Below are positions 1 through 36,689 of a stretch of DNA of 43,714 bases, piece after piece. The notes under the pieces were generated by a model. The model was not told the DNA's origin. It was given only the letters and a program-made list of their open reading frames with translations, and searched no databases. The translations under genes were made by a program, and so were the position numbers. The DNA lies in IMG/VR virus record IMGVR_UViG_3300031920_000119, positions 1-43,714 of that record; one strand, written 5' to 3'. The DNA is from a virus. The stretch's first letter is position 1; the number at the start of each line of letters is the position of its first letter.

Positions 1-131
1 CCGCTGCGGTCACTCCGGTCGTTGCACCCGCTGCGGTCACTCCGGTCGTTGCACCTGTGATCGCTCCGAACCCCGCAATACTTAATCCTGCCGCGGCGCC
101 AATCAATCCGGCAACAAACTTACCGTTTTGA
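1..131 (+). CDS. 3' end of the wrap-around ssDNA-binding protein gene (continuation of 43008..43714)
   Basis: nt 1-55 are identical to nt 43660-43714. In the continuing frame it encodes PAAVTPVVA repeats, then VIAPNPAILNPAAAPINPATNLPF and a stop (TGA 129-131). The C-terminal ...LPF tip resembles the C-terminal tails of SSB and T7 gp2.5. Confidence 0.7.
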   Translation, partial: AAVTPVVAPAAVTPVVAPVIAPNPAILNPAAAPINPATNLPF

Positions 132-3100
132 TACCGACATTTGACTTTGAAACATATTCAGAGGCGGGTTATAAGTTTGACCCGACCTCTGGGTCGTTTC
201 GACCGTTACAGGCGGGAAAACCCGGTTTAAAAGGTATTAACGCGCCAGTATACGCCGAACACATGTCCACACGTGTAATCTCTCTTGCATTCGATTTACT
301 TGACGGCTGCGGTATAAGATTGTGGACACCGGTTCGGTCAGCACCCATAGAATTATTTAATCTCATATGGTCAGGTGGTGAGCTCGAAGCACACAACAGC
401 GGCTTTGAATTTAATATCTGGGAGTACGTATGCCGTCAGCGCATGGGGTGGCCAGAACTGCCACTCGCCCAGTTAATGTGCAGCATGGCGAAAGCGCGGT
501 CGCAATGTCTTCCGGGCGGACTTGGTAAAGTGGCGACCATAGTCGGCGGTGAACAAAAAAACCCACGGGGCGCACACCTGATACGGCTGTTATCTGTTCC
601 GAAGAAACCAACAAAAAATGATCCGATGACGTACAGATCATTCGAAAAATACCCGGAGTTATATTATGAAATGTACGACTATAATGATCGGGACGTCGTG
701 TCCGAAAAGAGTGTATCGTCTATGCTCCCCGACCTGGGCACCACTGAACTCGCTGTGTGGCGGTTAGATCAACGTATTAACGCACGGGGGGTACAAATAG
801 ACACGGAAGGTCTGGACGCCTGTATAACGCTATTTAAACAGGTCGAGCTTAAATACACTGCCGAGTTACAACAGATAACCGGTGGAGCGGTTCAGACCAT
901 CGGGGAAATGGCAAAACTCAAGGCCGGGGATATGTGGGCGCAGAGTATGGGGGTAAACCTTCCCAGTTTCGATAAACCAAGTGTCATCGACGCCCTGGAA
1001 CGTACCGACCTGCCGGCACCGATACGTCGAGCACTCGAGATCCGGCAGGGGATTGGCGGTTCCGCAGTAAAGAAAATATTTGCACTACACCGTTACTTAA
1101 ATGCTGACGGGCGTATCCGTGATTTATTTGTATACTGCGGCGCTGAACGCACCGGACGGTGGGCAGGCAGAGGGCCACAACCTCAGAATTTACGGAACGG
1201 CGGACCAGACTCGATACAGTGCGACACGTGTGGGTCTCACAGTGTAATGGTCGATAATATGCCCGCGTGCAGGGTATGCGGAACGCTCACACGTCTCGAA
1301 CGTGTAGAATGGGGTAATCTACCCGCTAAAGCGGCACTTGAGGACATACTCGCATACGGCGTGGATCGTCTTGAGCACGTATGGGGTTCAGCCATCAGTC
1401 TTATAGGGTCTGTAATGCGGTCGTTATTTGTCGCCGCACCCCTTCACGACCTGATATGCTCGGATTACTCAGCCATTGAGGCGGTAGTCCTGGCAGCACT
1501 GGCGGGTGAGGAGTGGCGGCTCGAAGTCTTCCGAACCCATGGTAAAATTTACGAGGCATCCGCGGCCCATGCATTTAACGTGCCATTGCAGGAGATACTC
1601 GACCACCGCGAGCGTACGGGAAAACACCACCCCCTGAGAAAAAAAGGGAAAGTGCGAGAATTGGCATGTTTTACCCACGATACGCAAGTGTTGACAGACG
1701 TTGGATATGTTGGTATAGTGGATGTTAAATCAACACATTTATTATGGGACGGTGTGGAATGGGTAAAAAACGACGGGGTAACATACCGAGGCAAAAGAAA
1801 AATATTAAAATTGGATGGTGTCCGGGTAACCCCGGAACATCTAATCAATATCAACGGTTCTTGGATGGAGGCAAGGGAACTCGTTTCAAACAAAAGTATG
1901 TTGAGCCGGGCGTTGGTGACAGGTTCGGAGAGTATACCGTTGTTAAATACGAGAAACGAGGGCAAAGAAGGGGTGCCGTGTGTACGTGTACGTGCGGTTC
2001 GCGAAGATTTGTTGATTTATCTAACCTATATATGGGTAAGGCTACAAGGTGTGGCAGTTGCGGCAGGGATAAAGCGACCGATACGAGAGTCAAACTATAC
2101 TCGAAATACGCACACATATTACCAGACACCGGGCACAGACGGCGTCTTGTCAATAGATTACGTGCGGCTATTACCAGGTGTCATAGCATCAATAGCAAGG
2201 GTTACCCGAATTACGGCGGTCGGGGTATTAGGGTGGATAAAAGGTGGCTCGGGAAAGACGGCGCAGGAAAATTCCTCAAGCACGTTATCACCCTCGAAGG
2301 ATGGAACGCCCCGTCACTTGAAATGGATAGGATCGATACGGATGGCAATTACGAACCGAATAACCTCCGGTTTGTTACTAAAGCCCAAAACTGTCTTAAT
2401 AAAAGAAGCGTACAAAAAATGCAAAAACGAATTGATGAACTTGAAAGGCGTTTACGACATTGTAAATGCAGGGCCTCGAAACCAATTCACGATAAAAACT
2501 GATAGTGGGCACTTACTCGTCCATAACTGCGGATATTCTGGATGGATAAACGCGTGCAGACAGTTCGGCTACACTGGTACCGATGACGAGATAAAAGCGG
2601 ATGTATTATCCTGGCGTGCAGAGTCCCCGAACATTGTGGAAATGTGGGGCGGTCAGTGGCGTAAAGAACCTGGCGTCTGGCGTTTTACACCCGAATTATA
2701 CGGAGTTGAGGGTCAGTTCATACAGGCATGTCTATACCCTGATACCGAACGCCTGTTCCGAGACCTGACGTTCGCCTATGACAGTGCCGCAGACTCACTC
2801 TGTATTCGTTTACCATCTGGCAGAGACCTTGTGTATCACTCGCCACGGTTAAACAAAGGAATAGACCCCAGACGGCTCGATGTGTGGAAAATATCATATA
2901 TGGGCATTGATTCATACACCCACCGGTGGGAACGCATACAGACATATGGTGGGAAACTTACCGAGAATATCACACAAGCTGTGGCACGAGATATACTTGC
3001 CGCCGCCATGCTCAGACTTGACGCAGCCGGGTACCCGATTGTACTGCATGTGCATGATGAAGTAATATGCGAGGTACCGCACGGGTTCGGCAGTATCGAA

Positions 3101-3196
3101 GAACTCGAAGCAATAATGATGCAACGCGAGCCATGGTTTATCGATTGGCCAATCAAAGCGGCCGGTGGATGGCGCGGACATAGATATCGAAAATAA
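128..3196 (+). CDS. Family A DNA polymerase with N-terminal 3'-5' exonuclease domain, interrupted by an intein
   Basis: Exo motifs DFETYS, NSGFEFNIW and YNDRDV. Pol motif A is SDYSAIEAVV. Motif B, RKKGKVRELA/CGYSGW, is split by the insertion. Motif C is VLHVHDEV. The TTG start at 128 overlaps the SSB stop (tTTGa), and no in-frame ATG lies upstream after the stop at 83-85. Confidence 0.9.
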   Translation: MIPTFDFETYSEAGYKFDPTSGSFRPLQAGKPGLKGINAPVYAEHMSTRVISLAFDLLDGCGIRLWTPVRSAPIELFNLIWSGGELEAHNSGFEFNIWEYVCRQRMGWPELPLAQLMCSMAKARSQCLPGGLGKVATIVGGEQKNPRGAHLIRLLSVPKKPTKNDPMTYRSFEKYPELYYEMYDYNDRDVVSEKSVSSMLPDLGTTELAVWRLDQRINARGVQIDTEGLDACITLFKQVELKYTAELQQITGGAVQTIGEMAKLKAGDMWAQSMGVNLPSFDKPSVIDALERTDLPAPIRRALEIRQGIGGSAVKKIFALHRYLNADGRIRDLFVYCGAERTGRWAGRGPQPQNLRNGGPDSIQCDTCGSHSVMVDNMPACRVCGTLTRLERVEWGNLPAKAALEDILAYGVDRLEHVWGSAISLIGSVMRSLFVAAPLHDLICSDYSAIEAVVLAALAGEEWRLEVFRTHGKIYEASAAHAFNVPLQEILDHRERTGKHHPLRKKGKVRELACFTHDTQVLTDVGYVGIVDVKSTHLLWDGVEWVKNDGVTYRGKRKILKLDGVRVTPEHLININGSWMEARELVSNKSMLSRALVTGSESIPLLNTRNEGKEGVPCVRVRAVREDLLIYLTYIWVRLQGVAVAAGIKRPIRESNYTRNTHTYYQTPGTDGVLSIDYVRLLPGVIASIARVTRITAVGVLGWIKGGSGKTAQENSSSTLSPSKDGTPRHLKWIGSIRMAITNRITSGLLLKPKTVLIKEAYKKCKNELMNLKGVYDIVNAGPRNQFTIKTDSGHLLVHNCGYSGWINACRQFGYTGTDDEIKADVLSWRAESPNIVEMWGGQWRKEPGVWRFTPELYGVEGQFIQACLYPDTERLFRDLTFAYDSAADSLCIRLPSGRDLVYHSPRLNKGIDPRRLDVWKISYMGIDSYTHRWERIQTYGGKLTENITQAVARDILAAAMLRLDAAGYPIVLHVHDEVICEVPHGFGSIEELEAIMMQREPWFIDWPIKAAGGWRGHRYRK
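1667..2527 (+). mobile_element. Intein (287 codons) inserted in PolA motif B
   Basis: Begins with Cys (CFTHDTQVLTDVG, block A). Block B is VRVTPEHLI (TxxH). Block F/G is GVYDIVNAGPRNQFTIKTDSGHLLVHN, followed by the +1 Cys (CGYSG). Removing it restores ELA-CGYSGW, matching the ELAxGYGG type of motif B. Confidence 0.8.
1744..2502 (+). CDS. HNH-type homing-endonuclease-like ORF nested in the -1 frame inside the intein (start codon uncertain)
   Basis: 252-codon ORF in frame 1, while the polymerase/intein is in frame 2. Motifs are GDRFGEYTVV..CTCTCGS..V....L..G....CGSCG, YPNYGGRGIRV and LEMDRIDTDGNYEPNNLRFVTKAQNCLNKRS, as seen in free-standing phage HNH endonucleases. ATGs at 1744 and 1759 have no clear SD. 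Confidence 0.6.
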   Translation: MGRCGMGKKRRGNIPRQKKNIKIGWCPGNPGTSNQYQRFLDGGKGTRFKQKYVEPGVGDRFGEYTVVKYEKRGQRRGAVCTCTCGSRRFVDLSNLYMGKATRCGSCGRDKATDTRVKLYSKYAHILPDTGHRRRLVNRLRAAITRCHSINSKGYPNYGGRGIRVDKRWLGKDGAGKFLKHVITLEGWNAPSLEMDRIDTDGNYEPNNLRFVTKAQNCLNKRSVQKMQKRIDELERRLRHCKCRASKPIHDKN

Positions 3197-3279
3197 TGCC
3201 AGTGGCATGTGGTTTGCAATATAGAACGCGCGTGAACCGCATATCACCTTATTATTTTTCTTTTACAAGGAGCTAAAAT

Positions 3280-3501
3280 ATGTTTGATGAAATTGTAGAA
3301 AATATTAACAGTCGAATTAAAAATCAACCTGATTCTCGTTGTGCCACAGACGATGAAGTTAGGATTTGTTGGCTGGTGTCAGAAGTTAATACACTAAGAG
3401 AAAAGGTCAAAGCTGCTGAAAATTGCCTCGTCTGTTCTGTTATAGCTGACCCTTTTGAAGTATGCCATAATACTCTGGAAATTTTAAAAAACGAAAAATA
3501 A
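3280..3501 (+). CDS. hypothetical protein (73 aa)
   Basis: ORF with SD caaGGAGctaaaatATG. It lies in an AT-rich segment downstream of the polymerase. Confidence 0.6.
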   Translation: MFDEIVENINSRIKNQPDSRCATDDEVRICWLVSEVNTLREKVKAAENCLVCSVIADPFEVCHNTLEILKNEK

Positions 3502-3547
3502 TAAAAACATGCAACGAGCTTCGCTACGCTCGTCGGTGATGTTGAAC

Positions 3548-3571
3548 ATTAGCTCGGATAAACGAGCTAAT
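3548..3571 (+). terminator. 9-bp stem hairpin (attagctcg-gataaa-cgagctaat), possible intrinsic terminator
   Basis: Perfect 9-bp inverted repeat 47 nt after the stop at 3501. The T tract is weak (tatt). A second, smaller hairpin is at 3514-3533. Confidence 0.35.
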
Positions 3572-3670
3572 TATTCGATAATGCGGATAAAAAATATTAC
3601 TTAATACACTAATTAAAACAAACAGTTACAAACTATTTTCATTTTATTTCACTTTTTATTGAAAAAAGGC

Positions 3671-3699
3671 TTGACATTAATCTAAAACCCCTGTAGTAT
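3671..3699 (+). promoter_or_regulatory. sigma70-like promoter TTGACA-N17-TAGTAT
   Basis: Consensus -35 at 3671-3676, a 17-nt spacer and -10 tagtat at 3694-3699, preceded by an A/T-rich UP-like tract. Confidence 0.6.
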
Positions 3700-3742
3700 A
3701 GTATACATGATCAAAACAAAAACACATAACAAGGAGAATAAA

Positions 3743-3955
3743 ATGACAATCGAAATATACAAAAATCAATACGAAAACACAATGGTAACTTTTGGAAATT
3801 TTGACATTGAGATTTTTAAAAATCATAAATCTTTTGACGACAGCACAGAAGCAGAATTGAAAGAAAATTTTTTCTTTGAATTTTCAGATACAGAAGAGTC
3901 AAGAGCTGCATGGATTGTAATAATAGAAAAAGCAAAAAAAGAAAATTTAATCTAA
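3743..3955 (+). CDS. small acidic hypothetical protein (70 aa; alternative ATG at 3707)
   Basis: SD AAGGAGaataaaATG at 3743. The protein is D/E- and F-rich. The ATG at 3707 would be nearly leaderless relative to the predicted promoter. Confidence 0.6.
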   Translation: MTIEIYKNQYENTMVTFGNFDIEIFKNHKSFDDSTEAELKENFFFEFSDTEESRAAWIVIIEKAKKENLI

Positions 3956-3970
3956 AATCGGAGAGAAATC

Positions 3971-4153
3971 ATGAAAAAATTTAAAATGGTAAAGGCAGGA
4001 AAAGAAAGTTTGATCACAAGAACAGAAGTTATTGAAATTATCGGACAAGAGGGATTTGATTTTATCAAAGAAGATTTTGAAAAGCATGGACATAGTAAAA
4101 CGTCGCATGTGATAGACGATATTGAAATATTTTTTATGGCTCAGGACATATGA
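3971..4153 (+). CDS. small acidic hypothetical protein (60 aa)
   Basis: SD cGGAGagaaatcATG. Same AT-rich cassette. Confidence 0.6.
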   Translation: MKKFKMVKAGKESLITRTEVIEIIGQEGFDFIKEDFEKHGHSKTSHVIDDIEIFFMAQDI

Positions 4154-10620: not shown

Positions 10621-11909
10621 GATTGCAACACCGTTACATCACCGGATAATTTGTCGGCAGGTTGACTCGGGTTTAAAGCACGTAACTCAAGCCCCCGTAT
10701 TGTCAGATCATCACTCGTGGTCAACTGTTCTGCGTAAAGATCATACGCCATAGTGAAAGCACTCATTGCTGTGGCATTTTTGATCGTTGTAAGACTAAAT
10801 GTCGACTGCTCTTTCTGATCGAGCACGTCAAGTGCTGACAATCTGATATTTTCCACGGCGCGTCTGACCCCTGACCGTGATTGTATGAGCGTTTTGTCCT
10901 CAGTGTCAACCCGCATAAGTCTCTGGTGTTCTGTCTCAAGCGTGAGCCGCGTCTCGTCTATTTCGACGTCGGTTCTATACGCCGCGTCGGCGGCTTGTTC
11001 ATACGCCGATACGAGTGCAGACACACGGCCTGAATTTATTAAAGAAAGTCTATTCAAATTGCGCTCTACACGTAAAGCCGTTGTCGGGGACCATAAAGGT
11101 ATGCCCTCACCGTCCGAGTCTACGGTTTCGGGTATAGACGCATTTTTTATATCGGAAAGGCTCAAACTCAATTGAGATCCGAATTGCGTTAAATCTGTCA
11201 ATAAAGATATTCCCGCACCATCTGATAACCCAACGCTCACAGTCTGCCACAATTGCCCGATAAACGACGTTGAAAGCACTGACGAGGATCTCACTATTGA
11301 CGCGGTGTTAACTTCTATTAAATCGACAATCCGGGTGATATCTCCGGGGTTATTAACGACCGCGACTATCATGTCTATGGCAGCCGTAAATTGCTTAAGA
11401 TCAAATTGCGCGGCCAGTACATTTAACGTGTCGGTCGGATCGACCCATAGGTCCCCTAATGCTATCGCTATCTGAATACGCGCCGTATCACCCTGCGCGT
11501 AAACTGTCTGTACCGTTTTGGGTGCCGCAGACGGGCCGGAAACCGCGCGCCCCGACACGAACTCAAGGTCGAAACGGATCTCGCCCACGTCTTTCTGTGA
11601 GGCATCTTTTTTATACGGAAGGGCAAACAGTGGCCGTGCACCGAAAGTCGGCATTGATAGACGACCTTTTCCCGGTTCTTTTAAAGCACGCTCAAGCTGT
11701 GCCGCCCGGTCGATAAAGTCGTCACCTGTCACAAATGCTGTGACACTGAACTTTGGTGGTAATTCCCCCAGATCCTCGACAAACCTTTCGGAACTATTCG
11801 GATAGTCGTGCAGAACAATACGCCGCCCACCTTCCGTGAGCATTTCCGAACGTATGAAAAACGGAATACCTTTCCATGACGCTGGTAAAAGTTGTTTTAA
11901 TCTAGTCAT
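10617..11909 (-). CDS. DNA circulation protein, Mu gp43-like
   Basis: The N-terminus ASWKGIPFFIRSEMLTEGGRRIVLHDYPNSSERFVEDLG matches the DNA circulation N-terminal signature. Confidence 0.8.
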   Translation of the reverse strand: MTRLKQLLPASWKGIPFFIRSEMLTEGGRRIVLHDYPNSSERFVEDLGELPPKFSVTAFVTGDDFIDRAAQLERALKEPGKGRLSMPTFGARPLFALPYKKDASQKDVGEIRFDLEFVSGRAVSGPSAAPKTVQTVYAQGDTARIQIAIALGDLWVDPTDTLNVLAAQFDLKQFTAAIDMIVAVVNNPGDITRIVDLIEVNTASIVRSSSVLSTSFIGQLWQTVSVGLSDGAGISLLTDLTQFGSQLSLSLSDIKNASIPETVDSDGEGIPLWSPTTALRVERNLNRLSLINSGRVSALVSAYEQAADAAYRTDVEIDETRLTLETEHQRLMRVDTEDKTLIQSRSGVRRAVENIRLSALDVLDQKEQSTFSLTTIKNATAMSAFTMAYDLYAEQLTTSDDLTIRGLELRALNPSQPADKLSGDVTVLQS

Positions 11910-13573
11910 GCTCCGACTCCCGCTAAGTTATAACCCGAGTTTAAGTTTATATCCGCTCGCTTAACCTTCGCACCACCTGAAGCTGTAACATTAATACCAC
12001 CTGTCACCTCGACTTTATTATTCTGCGCGGCCCGCGCACGTGCTTTCGGGTCAGTGAGTGAACGCGCAACAGCATCACCCCCGCCGAACAATACCTCTTT
12101 ACCCCACCCCGCCAGATCTTTTAAAAACCCCGGTGCGGTAAGTGCATCCCAGTGCTTCGTAAGTTGATATGTTGCGGCAGTGACCGTCCCAATCGCCGCG
12201 GCAACGGCCAGGAATGGCACCGCAATTGCACTAACTGTGGCAATAAAAGCGACACCGGCGACCGAACTCAAGCCAGCCATGGCCACACCAAGTGACCCGA
12301 CCGCTATTAAAAGCGGGGGGATTACTGCGGCAATCGCGGTAAGGGAAATAATAACAATCTTCGACATTCTCGATAATCCATTGAACGATTCAAGTATCGG
12401 TATCATAATGTCAAGGAATTTTATTAAAGCAGGAACGAGTATTTTTCCCACCTCGTTAGCTATAAGCTTTATTCTATTCCACGCCACTTTTAATTTACTC
12501 GCCCATGATCCGAAACGCAGTTCCGCCTCTTTCACGAGTGCGGTGTTTTCTCGCCATGCGACGGAGCCAAGTTCTAACGCCTTTCTAAAAACGTCACCTG
12601 AACCTGCTGCACGCAAAAGTGAATCCCTGACCCGCATATCTGCCATGCCGAGTTTTGCGAGTATCCCGCTTACATTTGCCCCTTTGTCACTGAGCCTGGA
12701 AAGACCTTCCGTAAAATCTATAATGGCGCCGGCTGCATCTGTTTTAAATTTCTTTGCGAAGTCTTCTGCTGATTTGCCGGATACTGATGCAAATTTTTTC
12801 AACATTGCACCGTTTTTGTCAACGGCATCGTTTATCTTTAACATAACGCGACTGAATGCGGTACCGCCCGCCTCTGCGTTTAACCCGACGGATGTGGCGG
12901 CCGCCGCAAGTGCTAATATCTGGTGCTCTGACATTTTAACGACATTTCCCGAGGCAGCAAGCCGCAAGGCCATTCCCGTAATCTCCGCCTCTGTTGTTGC
13001 CATCTTATTACCAAGATGAACAATGGTCGAACCGAGTCTATCAAAATTACCTTGGCTCATCTGCGTGATATTAGCAAACCTTGCGAGCTGTGTGGCACCC
13101 TCGTCCCCCATGTTTGTTGTGGCGCTGAGCATCGCAATTGTTTTTGCAAAGGCGGTTATATTCTTTGTTTGAATCCCTAACTGTCCGGCGGCCTCACCTA
13201 TTCGAAATAATTCATTAACAGAGACGGGAATCTCTTTAGACATCATTTTGAACTCTTCCCGCATGTCTTCAAGTGTTTTTGCGGAAGCATCGACCGTCTT
13301 TCTGACGCCGATAAATCCCGACTGCATGTCTATGGCGGTTTTACCCGCAGCCAGACCGAGACCGATTATCGGTAAAGTTACCTTCGCAAAAGTGGCCCTT
13401 CCCATGGACCGCATCCTCGGACCCATTACCGCAAGATTTTTGTTCATCCTTTTTACAGACGTAGCGGCACGTAATGCAGACGCTTTAAATTTGTCGGTAC
13501 TTCTCGTTATCCGACCGAGAGGCGTGGAATATTTATCTAAAATACGGTATATATACTCAGTACTAAACCCCAT
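11906..13573 (-). CDS. tail tape measure protein
   Basis: 555 aa, Ala-rich and helical, with a hydrophobic C-terminal segment. It lies directly downstream of the frameshifted chaperone pair. Confidence 0.85.
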   Translation of the reverse strand: MGFSTEYIYRILDKYSTPLGRITRSTDKFKASALRAATSVKRMNKNLAVMGPRMRSMGRATFAKVTLPIIGLGLAAGKTAIDMQSGFIGVRKTVDASAKTLEDMREEFKMMSKEIPVSVNELFRIGEAAGQLGIQTKNITAFAKTIAMLSATTNMGDEGATQLARFANITQMSQGNFDRLGSTIVHLGNKMATTEAEITGMALRLAASGNVVKMSEHQILALAAAATSVGLNAEAGGTAFSRVMLKINDAVDKNGAMLKKFASVSGKSAEDFAKKFKTDAAGAIIDFTEGLSRLSDKGANVSGILAKLGMADMRVRDSLLRAAGSGDVFRKALELGSVAWRENTALVKEAELRFGSWASKLKVAWNRIKLIANEVGKILVPALIKFLDIMIPILESFNGLSRMSKIVIISLTAIAAVIPPLLIAVGSLGVAMAGLSSVAGVAFIATVSAIAVPFLAVAAAIGTVTAATYQLTKHWDALTAPGFLKDLAGWGKEVLFGGGDAVARSLTDPKARARAAQNNKVEVTGGINVTASGGAKVKRADINLNSGYNLAGVGA

Positions 13574-14693: not shown

Positions 14694-16277
14694 TTATACT
14701 GTTATCTGAGTACCTACTGCGCCCACTGTAAACGACAATCGCAATGAATAGTTAATACTGCGTAACTGCGTAACTATCGGCAGCGGCCCACTAACTGTTG
14801 CGAGTCCTGTCGAAAGGTCTACCGTCACAGTAGTGTTTGTTGCAAAAAAGCTTTCAGCCTCACGTCCCGCCTGTGTCAACGCCTGACCCGCAAGAAATTT
14901 GTAAATACGGAGCAATTCGGCTTTAATACTTTCAGCGTTGGCCATTGATCTGCCAGCAATTAAATCACCTTCGGTGAGCCTTGACTGTGCAAATGCGGAT
15001 TTCAATACACGGAAGAAAATTTCTCTACAGACGGATCCGGTGTCAACATAATTAAGATAATGAAAACTTACATTCGCATTACCACCCGCGTCAGTGGTCC
15101 AATTGGTTACAACCGGCCCCATGATCATGGCATTCTGCGCCGAATTTACACCGTATATGGTGAAACCCGCGTCCTCAAGTGCAGCTTGTTCTGTCGCAGT
15201 AAATAGGTTTGTTGATCCTGTCACCGGGGTATCTCTCATCGGGGTATTAAAGTACGGCAGACTCGCCAGACTCGGACCACCAAATGCGTCGAGACCACCC
15301 GACGTGCTGATAATATAACTTGCAATACCGGCGGAAGGCGTCAACCTGCGCGCTCTGATTCCGGCAAACTCAGCCGCAACCCAGTCGGCGGGTCGTAAGA
15401 TAGCGGGCCCCACGTGCGCAGCAAGTGCGAGCAATGGGGAACCCATAAAAACGACCGTCTGACTGTTTTCTGTAGCAATTGCAACCAGTATATTTGCGTA
15501 TGTATCGGTGAGACCATGGAAAATGGTACCGTCAAGTATGGCGTTGTTTGCATTGAAACGACTTTCAAATTCAGTTTTAATAATAGATAAATTACTGTTC
15601 CATGCCTCCGGCCACATTGCACCGGTATACCTGATACCTTCAATCGGATCGAGTATACTGGTGAGTACCGGGTCATTTGCTCCACCTGTCCAGCCTGTTA
15701 ACGTAATGGCCAGACCGGGGACAATACCCTCCACTTTAATGCCGTACGCATTGCAAATCGTGCCTTTATCTGTCGAGGTGCATGTCACAACCCCGGCGGC
15801 ATTACCGTTTGTAAAAACGGGGTCAGTAAGTGCGTCAAGAGCTGCCACAATTAATACGGCGGCCTGTGTTTCTGTACTGGTGTCAGGAATAGCGACAGTA
15901 ACCTGGTATTGTTCCTCGTCGACTACCGAAATTTTATACTCTCCGGCACTTGTGGCCGTTCCGACAATTGTGAGGACTCCGGTACCGGTGGCACCTGTCC
16001 CACTCGGGTCCATCCCAATTACGTCAAGCGGCGAAAATGCTTCATTAACATTGATCCATGCAAGAATTTGATTTGTCAGGAATGTGTCGTCCCCAAACAA
16101 TGTTTTAATTTCCGCGGTTGTCAGTGTGTGAACGTCTACATTTAAAGCGCCGTCCACTGCCGCACCAGAGTCGCCGATCTGACCAAAAATAATATCTCTG
16201 CGGTCTTCAAATGCGTCCACGATTGCGGCCGGTAATAATTGAATGTTCACCTGTGGGTTACTTGTGATCCCGCCCAT
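14694..16277 (-). CDS. contractile tail sheath protein
   Basis: 527 aa with SD AGGAGGcaagaaATG, in the position of Mu gpL within the gp38-sheath-tube order. Confidence 0.75.
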   Translation of the reverse strand: MGGITSNPQVNIQLLPAAIVDAFEDRRDIIFGQIGDSGAAVDGALNVDVHTLTTAEIKTLFGDDTFLTNQILAWINVNEAFSPLDVIGMDPSGTGATGTGVLTIVGTATSAGEYKISVVDEEQYQVTVAIPDTSTETQAAVLIVAALDALTDPVFTNGNAAGVVTCTSTDKGTICNAYGIKVEGIVPGLAITLTGWTGGANDPVLTSILDPIEGIRYTGAMWPEAWNSNLSIIKTEFESRFNANNAILDGTIFHGLTDTYANILVAIATENSQTVVFMGSPLLALAAHVGPAILRPADWVAAEFAGIRARRLTPSAGIASYIISTSGGLDAFGGPSLASLPYFNTPMRDTPVTGSTNLFTATEQAALEDAGFTIYGVNSAQNAMIMGPVVTNWTTDAGGNANVSFHYLNYVDTGSVCREIFFRVLKSAFAQSRLTEGDLIAGRSMANAESIKAELLRIYKFLAGQALTQAGREAESFFATNTTVTVDLSTGLATVSGPLPIVTQLRSINYSLRLSFTVGAVGTQITV

Positions 16278-20122: not shown

Positions 20123-21430
20123 TTAAGACGCGTTTATTTTTAAAATCTTTAATGCTTCAAAATTTGTCACGGCTCCGCCTGAACGTTTTGTACTGTAAAA
20201 TTTAACGTAAGGTTTAGCTGTATAAGGGTCTCTCAATACTCTAACACCAAATCTATCAACGATGGTATAACCCTCTCCAAAATCGCCATATACCACGCTC
20301 AGTGCATTTGCTGCAACCTCTGGCATGTCTGCCATGATGATAACACGCTTTGCCAAAAGGATACGGTCTGTGCCCTCTTTAAGCATAAATGGATTAAGAA
20401 GATAATCCCCGTTAGTGCCCTGTAACTGCATAATGTCACTGAATGTCGCTCTTGACATACCGAAAACCGCTGACATTTGGTAATCATCGATCAACTGATT
20501 TTGCAAATTGATCAAGTCGTTAGGTTCATCAAGCGTGGCCGCTGTCCCAGTCGCCGCAATCTGCTCAACAGCGTCGCGCTGATATGTTCCGGCGGTGGTC
20601 CATGCGTCATAGGATAGGAAACCTTTCCATTTTTTAGCACCATTACCGAGTACCCCGGCAGTATTTTCAAGTCTGGAAAATTTACGAGTAACTTTACCCT
20701 GTAACCAACCTTCGAGGTCGAAACCTGCGTCGTCGAGCATTCTCTGTGTAGCTTTAGGCTGCGCATACAATTCATGCACGGGGATAGTCAGTAAACCAAT
20801 CTGTGGGGAGTCTGTGTCGGATCTGGTCTCTACCTCACCCACCCATCCGGCAGCGGCTTCGTCGTCATCAATAACAAATTCCATACTATTACCGGAAGTC
20901 GTTACCACATTGGCAACAAGACGCAGAGGGGATGTTTCAAATATACGTTTTATAATCTGTGTTGAACGCTCTGGGGTTATAAAAAACCCACCGTCAGGAT
21001 TGGACCCTTCGACCAGGTCTTTGACATATGCAGCGATCTTTATTTCATCTGTATGAAACATGGTCTTTCTTGCCACATCTTCACAATATGTCTGCACAAC
21101 GTCTGTCGGGATCTGAACACCCTTGCGCAAATAAGCGTAAAAAGACGCTTTATGCTCCGGGGCCGTTGCTCCGACGTTCTTATTTTTACCGTTCTCAACG
21201 ACAGCCGCTTCAATGGCGAATACACGTTCCATGAGTTCTTTGGCGTTTATTTCCTGTTTAAGCTCCTGAATGGCAACAAATCCTTTCGATGCCTGGTCGG
21301 CCGTTTTTTTCATAGCGTCAAGGTCGAGACCGTCGTACTGTTTTTCGAGAGACGTAACCTTCTCCTGAACGGCTGTGATACCCCCGACGACTTCGTCTAT
21401 TTTTTCAAGTAATTTATCTTCGGTTGACAT
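20123..21430 (-). CDS. major capsid protein, HK97 fold
   Basis: 435 aa with an N-terminal coiled-coil delta-like region. It follows the prohead protease, and its sequence pattern is typical of HK97-family MCPs. Confidence 0.85.
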   Translation of the reverse strand: MSTEDKLLEKIDEVVGGITAVQEKVTSLEKQYDGLDLDAMKKTADQASKGFVAIQELKQEINAKELMERVFAIEAAVVENGKNKNVGATAPEHKASFYAYLRKGVQIPTDVVQTYCEDVARKTMFHTDEIKIAAYVKDLVEGSNPDGGFFITPERSTQIIKRIFETSPLRLVANVVTTSGNSMEFVIDDDEAAAGWVGEVETRSDTDSPQIGLLTIPVHELYAQPKATQRMLDDAGFDLEGWLQGKVTRKFSRLENTAGVLGNGAKKWKGFLSYDAWTTAGTYQRDAVEQIAATGTAATLDEPNDLINLQNQLIDDYQMSAVFGMSRATFSDIMQLQGTNGDYLLNPFMLKEGTDRILLAKRVIIMADMPEVAANALSVVYGDFGEGYTIVDRFGVRVLRDPYTAKPYVKFYSTKRSGGAVTNFEALKILKINAS

Positions 21431-28223: not shown

Positions 28224-28573
28224 CCGTCCTTTTCTCTATTAAATATTACAGGCTCGACTTTCATGTGCAGCATGAGTTTGATAATGTTTTGATTGAGGCA
28301 CCGTATTTCATCGAACGCTCGCCGGGTGTTCTCCGCCTCACGGTCCACATCGGATTTAACGACGCGAATATCTGTTTTGACCTGTTGCCTGTGCTCGATA
28401 CATGTAGAATTATCGATAAGATTTAACCCACCTTTTTCTAAGAACATAATATCTTTTATACTTGTGGTGACGTCCTCGACTTTTTCGACTCGGTACTTCA
28501 TAGCCGCAAAGACGCCCGCCATCGACGCGACGTATATACATACGTAAATCAGGTCTTTTAACTCGAATATCAT
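28217..28573 (-). CDS. hypothetical membrane protein (N-terminal TM helix plus coiled coil)
   Basis: LIYVCIYVASMAGVFAAM is a hydrophobic helix. The gene lies between TerL and portal and is coupled to TerL. Confidence 0.55.
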   Translation of the reverse strand: MIFELKDLIYVCIYVASMAGVFAAMKYRVEKVEDVTTSIKDIMFLEKGGLNLIDNSTCIEHRQQVKTDIRVVKSDVDREAENTRRAFDEIRCLNQNIIKLMLHMKVEPVIFNREKDGC

Positions 28574-30045
28574 TAGCTCACCATAAATTTACCGTGTTTG
28601 CTTAATTCAGTTAATGCCCATACAACCCAGTCAACCCTATTCGGGGATCTACCGTTACTTAAACCGGTTACCGGGTCAAAGTCAAGCATTTCATCCTCCA
28701 ATTTTGTTAAACCTGGTTTATGCTTTACAAATCCCTGCGCATACAGCGCCGCAATTGGTTCCGCACGGGCCACTTTACCCTTTGACGCATGTACACGTAT
28801 GATTTTACCTTTAAAGCCTGCATTACGCAGCGTATCCTCACACATATCCCCGCCCTGGTTTGTCTCAATTACTATGCCCGCGGCCTCAAGATATTCATAT
28901 AAATAGATCGCTGTATCTGCCCACTGCTTTGGTGTACCTTTTCGGGTCAGATCCATATCGACCGTGTATTTATCCGGGCCGTGATACGACGCAGCGCCGA
29001 CCCCGTGCTCGTCTGACGTCTTGCTGTTGCTCACCGCCGGATCGACCGCAATTATGGTACGTATGGGGGTGTTAAAAATACCAATCTGTGCATTGTTTAT
29101 ATCATCCTCTTGCCATATCATTAACTCGGCAATACGTTTCGGCGGGTCCTGCATGTTCTGGCTTGCATGTTTGCGCCTGTGAGCTTTCACGGCCACCTCA
29201 TGCTTTTCATTATGTTTAAACCGCCACAGCCACCCGTCAGGTAGTCCGTGCGGCATGAGTATGCCGTGCGTGTTTTCCTTTGGATACTTGTAACCTTCGT
29301 TGTCGATTATCATCGGCATACAAAGATGGTGCCACATCTCACCGCTGCCGCCTCTTAACAGGTACCCGGATAAATCATCCCAGTGTATCCGCTGCATGAT
29401 AACAACTATCGGGACGGACTCAACCGCGAGCCGGCTCGATACCGTTTCGTTATAATCAGTGTTGACGCCGCCCCGTTTGACTTCGGAATCCGCGTCGCCA
29501 GGTTTTAGGGGGTCATCTATGATCAGCGCGCCAGTGAATTTACCCTTCTGCATGTGTCCTGCTCGAAATCCAGTTACCTGGCCCCGAGTGGACGACGCAC
29601 GTACACCCCCGTTTTGTTCGGTCCACCATATTTTTTTAGATTTGGTGTCGTCTTTAGTTTGGACCGGCCACATATCTTGATACTCTTGACTATGTACGAG
29701 TTCCCTTGCAGACGCAGAGTTCTGTAACGCCAGGTCGCTCGAATATGACAGGTGCAGGAACCGACAGCGTGGATCTACGGCCAGACCCCGTGCCATATAA
29801 TTTATAGCGGCCATTTCCGTTTTTGTGTACCCTGGTGGCACATTAATAATCAATCGACTTATGTGCTGTGGGTCATCTGGGGATAACATGGTGCGGTCAA
29901 GTGCTGCCTGCATAACCGGATGGTGCTGCCCGATAGTCATTTTATTACCGAGGCGTTTTTTCATGAAATAGCGATTAAAATACAACCCGTCAAGCTCACA
30001 TTCGAGCTTTCGGGCTTCGGTTATCAGTGGGGGGTTAACAGTCAT
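28573..30045 (-). CDS. terminase large subunit
   Basis: 490 aa. Contains an ATPase Walker-like PPGYTKTE, an IIDDP Walker B and a C-terminal nuclease-like region (IIAVDPA...). Flanked by TerS and portal. Confidence 0.85.
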   Translation of the reverse strand: MTVNPPLITEARKLECELDGLYFNRYFMKKRLGNKMTIGQHHPVMQAALDRTMLSPDDPQHISRLIINVPPGYTKTEMAAINYMARGLAVDPRCRFLHLSYSSDLALQNSASARELVHSQEYQDMWPVQTKDDTKSKKIWWTEQNGGVRASSTRGQVTGFRAGHMQKGKFTGALIIDDPLKPGDADSEVKRGGVNTDYNETVSSRLAVESVPIVVIMQRIHWDDLSGYLLRGGSGEMWHHLCMPMIIDNEGYKYPKENTHGILMPHGLPDGWLWRFKHNEKHEVAVKAHRRKHASQNMQDPPKRIAELMIWQEDDINNAQIGIFNTPIRTIIAVDPAVSNSKTSDEHGVGAASYHGPDKYTVDMDLTRKGTPKQWADTAIYLYEYLEAAGIVIETNQGGDMCEDTLRNAGFKGKIIRVHASKGKVARAEPIAALYAQGFVKHKPGLTKLEDEMLDFDPVTGLSNGRSPNRVDWVVWALTELSKHGKFMVS

Positions 30046-34122: not shown

Positions 34123-34311
34123 TTGAAATTATCAGTATTGACGGTCGGTTCATTACTCGTCGGAATAGGTGCACCGAAAGCGCTCACCGTGAAAGACGCG
34201 ACGATACCACTCCCAGACGGTGGATATTGCCGAGGAAATGGTAAACCATCTGTGTGTTACATCACCGACCCGACAGCACCAGGAACCACCATCCCGGTCA
34301 TAGCCGGGTAA
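34123..34311 (+). CDS. possible small secreted protein (62 aa, TTG start)
   Basis: Signal-like N-terminus MKLSVLTVGSLLVGIGA. It overlaps the 3' end of the convergent primase gene by 55 nt. Confidence 0.2.
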   Translation: MKLSVLTVGSLLVGIGAPKALTVKDATIPLPDGGYCRGNGKPSVCYITDPTAPGTTIPVIAG

Positions 34312-36689
34312 CTCTGTGCAGTGCAATACGTCTGCATAACGGTAACCGGATCAGTGATATTTAAAGAAATATGGCCGTTCTTGACATACAGTCGGGGGCG
34401 GCCGTTTTCACTTGGTATCATCCTGGTCGCACGACCGTCCGGCAATGCTGGATGTTTTATATATCCCAGGTCCCTGAGGATCTCTTTACGTTGGTTTACT
34501 GTTACTCTGGAACGTAACCCACTGACGAGTCTGTTTAAAGCCATGGTCGATATCCATCCACCGCAGAATCCCGGCGCACCTTCCCTGGTCACTTCGAGTA
34601 TTTCTTGACCGACTGATCCGTAAGACTCTTGAACCGCAGCCTCACTGCTGGACGTTTCGGGTGCCCACACACATACGCCGGCAGGATTCAACATATCAGG
34701 TATGGCGTAACCACGCAGATGGTTATTTACTATGGCATTTCCACCATCACGCAACCACTTCACGAGGTTCGGAAAATAGTGCCCATCCATACCATGCGCC
34801 CGGATATCTGCAACACTCTGCTGCGCAGTATAGAATACGCTGAACCGACGGTCATCACGTTTCTTGACAACACCATCTTTATAATTTGTGCACATAATCA
34901 CATTTGCCCGGTTGTCCCCTGTGATCTGGTCCTGTCCTTTGGCTTGTATCGGGAGACGGGTGTCGGTAATAAGCGTCTTGAGTGTTTCGATGGCGCTGTC
35001 CGATGACTTGGTTTTTATTTCATCTATAATAATCAGGAGTTTTCCGGTAATCCATGCGTTAAATACATTGTCAAGGTCTTTGGGGTTTACTTTATGAGTG
35101 TACCGGATACCCACACAGAACGCGAGTATACTGGTCAACAGTGATTTACCGTTACCGAATGTCCCTTGTATGACCGGTGCCCATTGAAATTTTACACCAG
35201 GATACTGAACACATGCGGCCATATATGCCAGTAAGATCACTCTGTCACCCTCGACAGGCAATAATCGTGCCAGTAAGTCAAGAAACGGCGTGGGGTCACC
35301 TTCGGCACACTCTGTGTGTATTGGTACATAAGTGTTTACAGCGCTGCGCCCCTCATTGGTAAGTATCTCACCAGGGCCGAATTCTGGTTTAAAACAAGTG
35401 CCGTGCACCCATGGGTGTTTGACAGCCTGTGACTCAGTGAACGCATCCCACGCGTTTTTGCTGGTTTTATCGTTGATACTGTCCATTGCGAATACATAAC
35501 CACCATACGTGGCTTTAAACTGTTCAGGCTTTAACATACCCCCATCTGGCACCCATATTCGATGTGCGTCACGAACGTATGTGCACCCGGAGAATAGTGT
35601 AAGTTGATCATGTGGTGCAAGGAACTGAAAACCCGCTCGAAGACCCCCTGGTTCGGACGTCTCGAAAGGCACGTCACCCGGGGGTTTGGATCCAGCGGAA
35701 ACCGGCGGTGTCACTGGCTCCGTGGAAACGGGTATGAGTTTACGGTCCCGGTACACTTTAGAACAGATTGAAACTGCCCGTAATATAGTCGGCATCCGGT
35801 ACCCATCGAGTCGATCAAGATATTTATCACGCTGGCCAAGTGAAGACAAACCCCACAGTCGGTCGATACGTGCACAGTTCTTACCGGTCCAGAATGCCAG
35901 ATGTGAACATAGCGCGGCGTCGGCGGTCGACCAGTCAAACCCATACCCCTTGTCTCCAACCTCTGGATATGTTTGCGCCAGGGCGTCAGTGTCACCGTTC
36001 CACAATTGTTTGAATGTTATACCAGTGCCCACAATGCTGCGAGCACTTCGACTGCGGAGCATACGTTCGAGCAGTTCTGCGTTGTCATCCGGTCCGAGCC
36101 AGTCCGCACACGGTTCGGTTGTCCAGTTTTCTGGTATGGGCGCAGTGGCACCCCCCGGTGCCACGACCGTCGGCTCGAAAAAGTAGTCTATGAATTGTTT
36201 ATAAACCCCCGGGTCTGGCGCACATGAGGCGTCGCCGGTTACACCTGTTTCGGTTATAGCGCAAAATCGGAGTTTTGTATAAAATTGCGAGTCTATGTCT
36301 TTATTATCACAACCATGTGGCAGATCTGCGGGGGTAATTCCGAAAATATGTAATCCCCGTCCTGATTGTGACACCTCAACGGCGCAACCTTGGAACAGGG
36401 TGCAAAGGTATACGGCCGTCTCGTTCCATTGACCATCCACCCCCATGCACTCGTCGATATCAAGAAAGAAAAACGGGTCAGTATCGGCAAATACAAACGC
36501 CGTGGGCTGGCCTGTTGCGCGCACCTGTTCATAGGATTGCCACAGTGTTGAGTCGTGTGCATCACAATTGCGGCCCGTGCACGGGTCTGTTGGTATCTTA
36601 TCTGTCTTACCGTTGGCTTTGGGTACCAGTCTATAACTGAGCCATTGGTTATACTGTTTTAGTGCATCAAGTCCACTGAGCTCTGTCAT
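34257..36689 (-). CDS. bifunctional primase-polymerase (AEP) / SF3 helicase
   Basis: AEP motifs FFLDIDEC and SQSGRGLHIFG are at the N-terminus. Walker A is GTFGNGKSLL and Walker B is LLIIIDEI, as in D5/P4-type helicases. Confidence 0.85.
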   Translation of the reverse strand: MTELSGLDALKQYNQWLSYRLVPKANGKTDKIPTDPCTGRNCDAHDSTLWQSYEQVRATGQPTAFVFADTDPFFFLDIDECMGVDGQWNETAVYLCTLFQGCAVEVSQSGRGLHIFGITPADLPHGCDNKDIDSQFYTKLRFCAITETGVTGDASCAPDPGVYKQFIDYFFEPTVVAPGGATAPIPENWTTEPCADWLGPDDNAELLERMLRSRSARSIVGTGITFKQLWNGDTDALAQTYPEVGDKGYGFDWSTADAALCSHLAFWTGKNCARIDRLWGLSSLGQRDKYLDRLDGYRMPTILRAVSICSKVYRDRKLIPVSTEPVTPPVSAGSKPPGDVPFETSEPGGLRAGFQFLAPHDQLTLFSGCTYVRDAHRIWVPDGGMLKPEQFKATYGGYVFAMDSINDKTSKNAWDAFTESQAVKHPWVHGTCFKPEFGPGEILTNEGRSAVNTYVPIHTECAEGDPTPFLDLLARLLPVEGDRVILLAYMAACVQYPGVKFQWAPVIQGTFGNGKSLLTSILAFCVGIRYTHKVNPKDLDNVFNAWITGKLLIIIDEIKTKSSDSAIETLKTLITDTRLPIQAKGQDQITGDNRANVIMCTNYKDGVVKKRDDRRFSVFYTAQQSVADIRAHGMDGHYFPNLVKWLRDGGNAIVNNHLRGYAIPDMLNPAGVCVWAPETSSSEAAVQESYGSVGQEILEVTREGAPGFCGGWISTMALNRLVSGLRSRVTVNQRKEILRDLGYIKHPALPDGRATRMIPSENGRPRLYVKNGHISLNITDPVTVMQTYCTAQSYPAMTGMVVPGAVGSVM

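Follow-up and report, generated by a model that had tools for sequence, protein, structure and literature searches.

Endonuclease genes associated with inteins do not always share the splicing domain's reading frame. According to later papers that cite it, an early report described endonuclease open reading frames (ORFs) in alternative frames or strands of inteins (Gorbalenya, 1998), and recently actinophage inteins were shown to encode an EndoVII-like homing endonuclease (HEN) in frame 3, together with the prediction that inteins with an out-of-frame HEN are under-annotated (bioRxiv 10.1101/2025.01.02.630785). Moreover, an intein in cyanobacterial dnaX contains a LAGLIDADG ORF in the +2 frame, which was analyzed by frame-specific ratios of nonsynonymous to synonymous substitutions (dN/dS; Phillips, DeSimone & Gogarten, bioRxiv 10.64898/2026.09.14.751524), and the ShiLan domain and the Pacc40 gp60 insert in mycobacteriophage DNA methylases carry HNH-like ORFs in the third frame, with no splicing domains (Arsenault et al., Genes 2025, PMC11855218). 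Here, we describe a locus of this kind in the gene for a family A DNA polymerase (PolA) of a virus, the IMG/VR record IMGVR_UViG_3300031920_000119, of which positions 1 to 43,714 were analyzed (this whole stretch of 43,714 nucleotides (nt) is called the window). With a probability of about 80%, the locus is a composite selfish element made up of a cis-splicing class-1 intein in motif B (the O-helix) of PolA and a homing-endonuclease-type gene nested in the +2 frame of the intein. A first-pass annotation of the window had proposed an intein overprinted by its endonuclease gene and regarded it as an intermediate or unreported architecture. The precedents listed above show that its list of known arrangements was incomplete and that the architecture as such has been reported.

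The actinophage inteins resemble the locus in the window in that the intein is continuous, the HEN region is meaningless in frame and frame 3 (corresponding to +2) encodes an endonuclease of free-standing type; for their origin, the invasion of a mini-intein by a free-standing homing endonuclease gene (HEG) was proposed. They differ in their endonuclease family, which is EndoVII-like and matches PDB entry 1E7D, and in their occurrence in phages of Actinobacteria; host proteins are given there for the non-canonical inteins as one group and not per type, and no statistics on frame-specific selection or stop avoidance are reported. The DnaX intein shares the +2 ORF, the purifying selection on the endonuclease frame with a relaxed overlapped intein frame, and the sporadic distribution, but its endonuclease is of the LAGLIDADG and not of an HNH/AP2-like type, its host is the cellular cyanobacterial dnaX gene and it belongs to another intein family. 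For ShiLan and Pacc40, the host frame is likewise stop-free over a hidden third-frame HNH-like ORF, the same question of translation of the hidden ORF arises, and AP2 or HNH are the names given to the BLAST relatives of the Pacc40 ORF, as is also seen for the family in the window. However, these inserts have no splicing blocks and are thought to stay in the protein, whereas the ORF in the window is flanked by a complete Hint domain. Two further arrangements can be compared as they are cited in later papers. In fractured genes, a free-standing-type endonuclease gene is also located between intein halves in a replication gene, but the host gene is divided into two ORFs and splicing occurs in trans (Dassa et al., 2009), whereas in the window the host frame is continuous and splicing in cis is predicted. 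In the in-frame HNH inteins reported in 1997, an HNH-type endonuclease is likewise combined with the Hint domain at the block B/block F junction, but as a single polypeptide with the canonical catalytic His. In comparison, the element in the window differs in its endonuclease family (His-less, HNH/AP2-like), in its hosts (PolA motif B and an SNF2 helicase in phages of Proteobacteria including Jerseyvirus), in the overlap that reaches both splicing lobes and, apparently, in expression signals embedded in Hint codons. A literature search found no paper on this element or on the hidden ORF of the SETP3/Jerseyvirus polymerase intein, most subscription journals and InBase lying outside the search.

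The assignment of the intein depends on its position, its catalytic residues and its homology to known inteins (Table 1). The PolA ORF matches Pfam DNA_pol_A (E 1.9e-12) and phrog_17 (E 7.8e-82), and its alignment with nine phage PolA proteins reveals a 287-residue insertion. The intein-less PolA proteins of Acinetobacter phage Scuro, Vibrio phage 367.14 and Shewanella phage SppYZU01 read GKVAELA/SGYQGG (the slash marks the insertion point here and below), which represents the Lys...Tyr-Gly signature of motif B, and they are colinear across the site. This shows that the insertion is placed exactly within motif B, with ELA/CGY in the window, i.e., precisely in a conserved host motif and absent from close homologues. 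All 27 homologues of the intein contain Cys1 (CFTHDTQVLT in the window) and T55 and H58 of block B (TPEH, residues 55-58) as well as D264, H286 and N287 of blocks F and G (VYD...LLVHN/C); T6, V8, G13, I17, W27, G29, W32, W66 and G281 are also invariant, and the +1 residue is Cys or Ser in 28/28 loci. Searching all PDB sequences with the intein family profile resulted in 12 matches, all of them to inteins (Mtu RecA, the split intein of Neq Pol, the mini-intein of Spl DnaX and a VWA intein), and removal of the linker gave best PDB E-values of 6.5e-5 (Neq Pol) and 2.9e-4 (Spl DnaX, positions 2-110 of 116). Furthermore, hhalign aligned the spliced intein profile over columns 1-116 with the Npu DnaE, Ssp DnaB and Mtu RecA mini-inteins (96.1%, E 2.8e-9), these three reference sequences having been entered by hand, which lowers the weight of this comparison. 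Also unfavorable are that the window intein alone stays below the threshold of the Hint models of Pfam and NCBIfam (E 0.06-0.07) and that its AlphaFold2 model as a single sequence is uninformative, with a predicted local distance difference test score (pLDDT) of 33. The profile searches that had been proposed for both translations recovered Hint homology through the family profile but only below threshold from the single intein. The region is filed as a class-1 intein whose splicing is predicted from its sequence; it contains no in-frame endonuclease and its in-frame linker is not conserved. In these points, in the overprinting of the linker by a conserved ORF of a homing-endonuclease-like family and in all coordinates and motifs that it listed, the first-pass annotation was right.

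The nested ORF lies in the +2 (= -1) frame, which is open from position 1729 to the TGA at 2500-2502, and its final 17 codons and stop overlap the Hint C-lobe, including block F. The start given previously, ATG 1744 (252 codons), is possible in the window, as is ATG 1759, and the latter is the conserved start. A tblastn search of the alternative-frame ORF against GenBank phages matched 736 records, and the best matches are located under annotated continuous polymerase coding sequences (CDSs), namely those of Vibrio phage 97.13 (64% amino acid (aa) identity of the nested ORF to that of the window), Pseudomonas phage MR14, EBPR siphovirus 2 and Jersey-like Salmonella phages such as SETP3. In every GenBank record examined, the polymerase CDS has one terminal stop and the offset of the alternative-frame match is +2. 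Scanning IMG/VR with a profile yielded 80 further loci. A host ORF surrounds the first 24 of them, of which 23 are intact and one (L029) is broken by frameshifts; a long open third frame in another locus (L053) was a GC-rich false alarm. In the 23 intact loci, the alternative frame is open for 228-324 codons and the host frame is open as well, for up to 1207 codons where contig ends do not cut the ORF. In free-standing homologues, the equivalent frame is open for 2-262 codons, typically ~30. Altogether, the same +2 offset with both frames intact was found in 28/28 independent loci, which share 31-66% aa identity and come from different laboratories and metagenomes. As side observations on annotation, the GenBank records examined, apart from the LPSE1 annotation described below, annotate the polymerase only, and the record of VT223 labels the entire polymerase 'endonuclease'.

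That both frames are held open by selection, as stated in the first-pass annotation, is supported by several comparisons. In the homologous segment, host-frame stops are absent from all 28 embedded loci, whereas each of 51 free-standing homologues has at least one (mean 7.2; 4.5 per 100 codons). Synonymous recoding that keeps the alternative-frame protein of the window generates on average 11.5 stops in the polymerase frame, and none of 20000 recoded sequences was stop-free (P(0 stops) <5e-5); for other loci this probability ranges from <5e-5 to 0.06. Moreover, a Met followed by I/M/T/N/K forces a TGA in the host frame, and 0 of 56 Met of the embedded proteins are followed in this way compared to 61 of 137 in the free-standing ones, which shows that the host frame shapes the sequence of the nested protein. 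Among 30 embedded copies, 28 are at +2, two at +1 and none is in frame, apart from the frameshift-broken L029. In free-standing homologues the frame that corresponds to the host frame in the +2 arrangement contains 4.5 stops per 100 codons and the other frame 8.0, so that the +2 arrangement should be easier to reach and to keep.

The distribution of the element is that of a homing gene. It is sporadic and mobile, with free-standing phage paralogues, and tied to a self-splicing element at conserved sites; IMG/VR contains 564 relatives of the nested protein, most of them free-standing. As an example of a presence/absence polymorphism, the Vibrio mediterranei phages 97.13 (with intein) and 367.14 (without intein) share 91.6% nucleotide identity in their exteins, with nine synonymous differences within 27 nt of the junction. 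At least five insertion sites were found. The intein with its ORF is present at ELA/(C/S)GY in the window, 97.13, EBPR2 and others, four codons upstream at GKx/CEL.LGY in MR14, SETP3, VT223 and others, and at a third motif-B position, GKIA/CLALGY, in L013 (2909-3775). A second PolA site, LEIS/C...HN/CQSMTRDL, is used in L032 (2909-3772, +2 ORF), and in L030 (IMGVR_UViG_3300050202_000021, 2780-3649, +2 ORF) the host is an SNF2-family helicase (Pfam SNF2-rel_dom, 1.2e-13) with the junction LTGTLLLNRPSE/C.... The three motif-B positions within four codons suggest that the target site may have been slid or switched, and the intein-less motif-B sequence GGTAAAGTCGCGGAGCTTGCT/TCTGGATATCAAGG is a putative homing target. 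With 31-66% aa identity between copies and this number of sites, the lineage is old, diversified and stable and does not fit the description as an intermediate.

Two loci with a +1 frame were observed in addition. Shewanella phage SFCi1 (L007, KX196154, 2296-3219) contains a 308-aa intein at a second PolA site (GGRLAEN/C...VVHN/CTQAV), the +1 frame of which encodes a protein of the same family (GxRFGxLT...YGGRGI...DR.D). In L069 (IMGVR_UViG_3300045988_128087), the host PolA ORF covers 1353-4139 and the nested ORF 2878-3453, the intein being located at the motif-B site GKVAELA/C...LVHN/CGYGGG and the nested homologue being shorter and of the free-standing type. These +1-frame copies imply independent nesting events.

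The product of the nested ORF, of which YGARGITVFDQWR is a predicted peptide, matches phrog_374, named 'HNH endonuclease', with E=5e-33, and also phrog_3377 and phrog_2081; weak matches to HNH PHROGs cover residues 190-229. A protein collection yielded 187 homologues, of which ~70 are proteins of 240-260 aa called on short contigs and the others are shorter free-standing proteins beginning near GDRFGxLTV. An AlphaFold2 model calculated with 72 sequences has a mean pLDDT of 85, residues 50-230 being mostly above 90. Residues 1-40 are low, in agreement with the selection map described below, in which the first ~45 codons are carried along by Hint-N. From its N-terminus, the model consists of a beta domain containing four invariant Cys, a middle part made up of helices, a beta-beta-alpha-like unit (EMDRID...LRFV...KAQNCLN) with strands 188-191 and 203-206 and helix 208-213, and a terminal helix. 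In BFVD, 109 phage proteins were matched, the names of which vary between HNH homing endonuclease, AP2/ERF and DNA-binding. The best match, A0A1L7DRS1, is an 'uncharacterized protein' of the Jersey-like Salmonella phage LPSE1 and represents the nested 247-aa ORF, showing that the nested ORF was already called by at least one annotator.

The first-pass annotation considered this protein a recognisable HNH endonuclease, and here the results argue against it. None of the 72 family members matches any Pfam HNH family and no NCBIfam match was found. The 72 homologues share no invariant His, the position of the catalytic His being occupied by the invariant Arg191 (DRID). Foldseek detected no PDB nuclease with the model of the alternative-frame protein and nothing below E 0.27, the top matches being partial and Tudor/chromo-like, and the family profile gave only a chance coiled-coil match among PDB sequences. 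Nuclease activity is therefore predicted from the family context. 'HNH' is only a label, weakly grounded in the PHROG names and the beta-beta-alpha-like motif, and HNH/AP2-like homing-endonuclease-family protein is a safe name. The nested protein might instead be a sequence-specific DNA-binding protein, AP2-like or a degenerate HNH, and not a nuclease, in which case the element would spread via a nuclease acting in trans or by plain recombination, or the protein would be a phage regulator. The Arg at the position of the HNH general base, the missing Pfam HNH and PDB nuclease matches, the single member out of 72 that matches AP2 and the various names of the BFVD relatives are in line with such a function, and the authors of PMC11855218 likewise doubt the Pacc40 insert. 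We regard this as unlikely, since the family is abundant, sporadic and phage-borne like free-standing HEGs, it is tied to the intein at five different conserved target sites, its D190, N202 and N214 in the beta-beta-alpha-like unit resemble an HNH/HNN metal site, and its PHROG label is HNH endonuclease.

Which frame is under selection was read from the variability by codon position in an alignment of 25 non-redundant embedded copies. At window positions 1759-1848, the polymerase wobble position is the most variable (0.60-0.65) and polymerase position 2 the least (0.29-0.35), positions 1849-1893 are transitional, and at 1894-2445 the wobble position of the alternative frame, corresponding to polymerase position 2, is the most variable (0.61-0.71). 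A gap-free comparison of the window with another copy (L010) over 861 nt resulted in 19/19/31 differences at polymerase codon positions 1/2/3 in the first 225 nt (Hint-N), 37/116/56 in the middle and 3/1/11 in the last 75 nt (Hint-C), and the double flip was repeated in eight other pairs. These flips show that the Hint ends are constrained in the polymerase frame and the middle in the alternative frame. Furthermore, the mean hydropathy of the linker is -0.13 compared to -0.09 for a random +1-frame translation of free-standing genes, and the compositions are alike, which is consistent with a polymerase-frame linker that may be under no constraint beyond stop avoidance. A continuous intein ORF, an in-frame region with no recognisable structure, a same-strand alternative frame encoding an endonuclease-family protein and purifying selection on this frame with relaxation of the intein frame within the overlap are thus all present, as in inteins with an out-of-frame HEN.

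These data also bear on two alternatives. The insert might not splice at all and might stay on the polymerase as a tolerated surface loop, as the ShiLan domain does in methylases, the ShiLan and Pacc40 elements being examples of out-of-frame HNH-like inserts without splicing domains (PMC11855218). The purifying selection on the Hint ends in the polymerase frame, the invariance of all catalytic intein residues, the end-to-end homology to mini-inteins and an insertion point that lies between conserved residues in the O-helix of a replicative, essential polymerase make this very improbable. The alternative-frame ORF might further be a relic, i.e., a decaying former endonuclease gene, with the polymerase frame alone being of importance. 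Mini-inteins and degenerating endonuclease domains are common, as is established and discussed in 10.1101/2025.01.02.630785, but a relic is hardly compatible with a nested ORF that is intact in 28/28 loci, with an alternative-frame wobble position that is the most variable over ~550 nt in which the polymerase frame shows no amino acid constraint, and with the confident fold predicted for the nested protein; we therefore give it a very low probability as well.

For the composite element, the question arises how the nested gene might be expressed. At intein nt +92, the alternative-frame codon is ATG, GTG or TTG in 28/28 loci and lies within the open frame in 26; this start is built from the last base of a Glu or Lys codon and the TG of the Trp codon in WDGxEW, a motif of Hint. 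Upstream of the start lies GGGAYGGUG, which has a pairing energy to the anti-Shine-Dalgarno sequence of -6 to -7.7 kcal/mol and ranks in the top ~5% of host-gene positions (top 2.9% of gene positions in the window; median percentile 0.046 over 28 loci). Moreover, promoter-like hexamers are found in the same register in homologues; L018 and L024 both score 12/12, and most members of one subclade 9-11. In this subclade of 18 loci, Leu9 is encoded by TTG in 16/18 (extein base rate 12%), the wobble base of codon 16 is T in 16/18 although the amino acid is P/A/R/D/G (base rate 15%), 16 loci have A as the wobble base of Glu31 and 13 have GGT for Gly29. This is suggestive of an internal sigma70-type promoter in Hint block A, to be considered a candidate. 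The synonymous-recoding test weakens the case, as the promoter register with its z of ~8 (7.8) was only the second of 103 offsets; comparable z values at unrelated registers indicate that the null is miscalibrated, so that the claim was cut to suggestive and rests on the codon counts. In addition, the loci are phylogenetically related and one subclade does not have the motif. In the same 18 loci, other synonymous sites within intein nt 1-99 (window 1667-1765) are conserved and not explained by a model of promoter, Shine-Dalgarno element and start: Gln7 is CAA in 15/18, the wobble base of codon 3 is C in 14/18 and Asp5 is GAT in 12/18.

A -1 programmed frameshift at the heptamer A_AAA_AAC, resulting in a fusion of N-extein, Hint-N and endonuclease, was considered as another route to the nested protein. 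The heptamer has the form X_XXY_YYZ and the correct register 6 nt into the alternative ORF, but it is unique to the window, none of the other 27 loci having it, an Rfam scan over the entire window returned no family and hence neither an intron nor a frameshift element, and the conserved start codon with its Shine-Dalgarno-like element provides a simpler route. The idea was rejected as highly unlikely. A more far-reaching interpretation is that ~70 nt of block A encode at the same time essential splicing residues, a promoter (TTGACA in Leu9-Thr10 and TATAGT in codons 16-18), a Shine-Dalgarno element (Trp-Asp-Gly) and a start codon (Glu-Trp), that the product defines a His-less family of homing nucleases with no solved structure and that overprinting, in place of in-frame fusion, is the normal, long-lived association of this family with inteins. 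This is tentative and, taken as a whole, rather doubtful; if it was true, a selfish element would carry a complete expression cassette inside a protein-coding domain.

The data show how the element is built and conserved, how selection on it depends on the frame, its homology to Hint domains and its polymorphic presence. For the composite element as a whole we infer the following mechanism, which includes splicing, separate translation, possible promoter use, nuclease activity and homing. The polymerase would be translated straight through the intein, and the Hint N-lobe (1667-~1950) and C-lobe (2450-2527) would fold together across a junk loop of ~165 residues that arises from reading the nested gene out of frame, whereupon the intein would excise and ELA-CGY be rejoined. 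The nested gene would be translated separately, most likely from ATG 1759 after the Shine-Dalgarno-like GGGAYGGUG and possibly from the internal sigma70-type promoter. Its 247-aa product might cut or nick intein-less polymerase alleles at motif B, and repair would copy the element in. Selection accordingly acts on three things: at both ends on the Hint residues in the polymerase frame, in the middle on the endonuclease-like protein in the +2 frame and, for the polymerase frame of this middle part, only against stops.

That two compensating indels moved an ordinary in-frame HNH domain out of frame, which the first-pass annotation had named as a possible source of error and for which the a priori rarity of long dual-open frames and the several frameshifts in the related record L029 could be cited, is excluded for practical purposes by the arrangement shared by 28 independent sequences of 31-66% aa identity, by more than 100 Jersey-like Salmonella phage records annotated with a single continuous polymerase CDS and by the fact that the frameshifts in L029 break the polymerase ORF, as real errors do, whereas the ORF in the window is unbroken. 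The broken region of L029 (IMGVR_UViG_638275545_000001, Jersey-like) covers ~2700-3800, and its frameshifts are likely sequencing errors in an old genome. One of them joins the Hint-N frame directly to the endonuclease frame and illustrates a one-indel path to an intein with an in-frame HEN.

The papers of 2025-26 call inteins with out-of-frame endonucleases rare, but a large, old lineage of them exists in phages of Gram-negative bacteria. It is also found in the Jersey-like Salmonella phages, which have been sequenced many times and serve in typing and therapy; in their records, an annotation of the nested gene is almost always missing and the polymerase appears as a plain single CDS. The locus is also an unusually clean case of overlapping genes, in which one frame needs only the absence of stops, the constraint changes frame twice in 860 nt and the nested protein is measurably restricted by the host frame. 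It supports the model in which the splicing domain came first and a free-standing HEG invaded later, and it adds data on site switching, since motif B alone offers three insertion points within four codons and a helicase and a second PolA site are used as well. Finally, it draws attention to a family of phage proteins that is widespread and has a confidently predicted fold but neither a solved structure nor the canonical catalytic His; this family could yield new site-specific DNA-binding or DNA-cleaving modules and makes a biochemical study worthwhile.

Table 1. Coordinates of the features of the polymerase locus and of other phage genes in the window.
Feature	Position	Strand	Remarks
PolA (family A DNA polymerase) precursor ORF	128..3196	+	1022 aa, TTG start, single terminal stop, continuous through the intein
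N-extein half of motif B (GKVRELA)	1646..1666	+	directly 5' of the insertion point; from alignment with intein-less homologues
Class-1 intein (splicing predicted)	1667..2527	+	287 aa, Cys1 to Asn287; start CFTHDTQVL, end VYDIVNAGPRNQFTIKTDSGHLLVHN, then Cys
Hint N-terminal splicing lobe	1667..1951	+	blocks A and B (intein aa 1-95), with TPEH at 1829-1840; conserved columns 1-97
Putative sigma70-like promoter in Hint block A	1691..1719	+	TTGACA 1691-1696, 17 nt spacer, TG-extended TATAGT 1714-1719; 11/12 match
Shine-Dalgarno-like element GGGACGGTG	1746..1754	+	W-D-G codons of Hint WDGVEW; duplex with anti-Shine-Dalgarno sequence -7.7 kcal/mol
Nested ORF, HNH/AP2-like homing-endonuclease-family protein	1759..2502	+	247 aa from ATG at intein nt +92; +2 (= -1) frame
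A_AAA_AAC heptamer in the polymerase frame	1765..1771	+	-1 slip enters the alternative frame; judged incidental
Segment under selection in the alternative frame only	1894..2445	+	polymerase-frame linker ~aa 96-261 free except for stop absence
Four invariant Cys, C77, C79, C98 and C101 (CxC...CxxC), putative zinc site	1987..2061	+	N-terminal beta domain, strands 59-86
Beta-beta-alpha-like motif EMDRIDTDGNYEPNNLRFVTKAQNCLNK	2320..2403	+	D190, R191, N202 and N214 conserved
Hint C-terminal lobe	2450..2527	+	blocks F and G, VYDIVNAGPRNQFTIKTDSGHLLVHN; C-part hmmsearch independent E-value 3.2e-10
+1 nucleophile Cys	2528..2530	+	C-extein residue 1, CGYSG of motif B
Tape measure	11906-13573		
Tail sheath	14694-16277		
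Major head	20123-21430		
Terminase	28573-30045		
Primase	34257-36689		
Helicase	38690-40330		

The whole window looks like the complete genome of a contractile-tailed phage of ~43.7 kb, and a baseplate gene is also among its phage genes. Megablast of window positions 1-3600 against the INPHARED phages gave zero matches, and the window is a new phage with no close relative among GenBank phages. A scan of the window found a single intein and a single copy of the endonuclease-like family. With regard to the 5' part of the polymerase gene, the first start codon at position 128 is a TTG with no obvious Shine-Dalgarno sequence, the frame upstream of it is closed by a TAA at ~83-85, and an exonuclease motif, DFETYS, begins at PolA residue 6. 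At the extreme start of the window, positions 1-54 consist of a perfect tandem duplication of 27 nt (ccgctgcggtcactccggtcgttgcac, twice), which apparently belongs to the 3' end of an ORF that begins upstream, outside the window.

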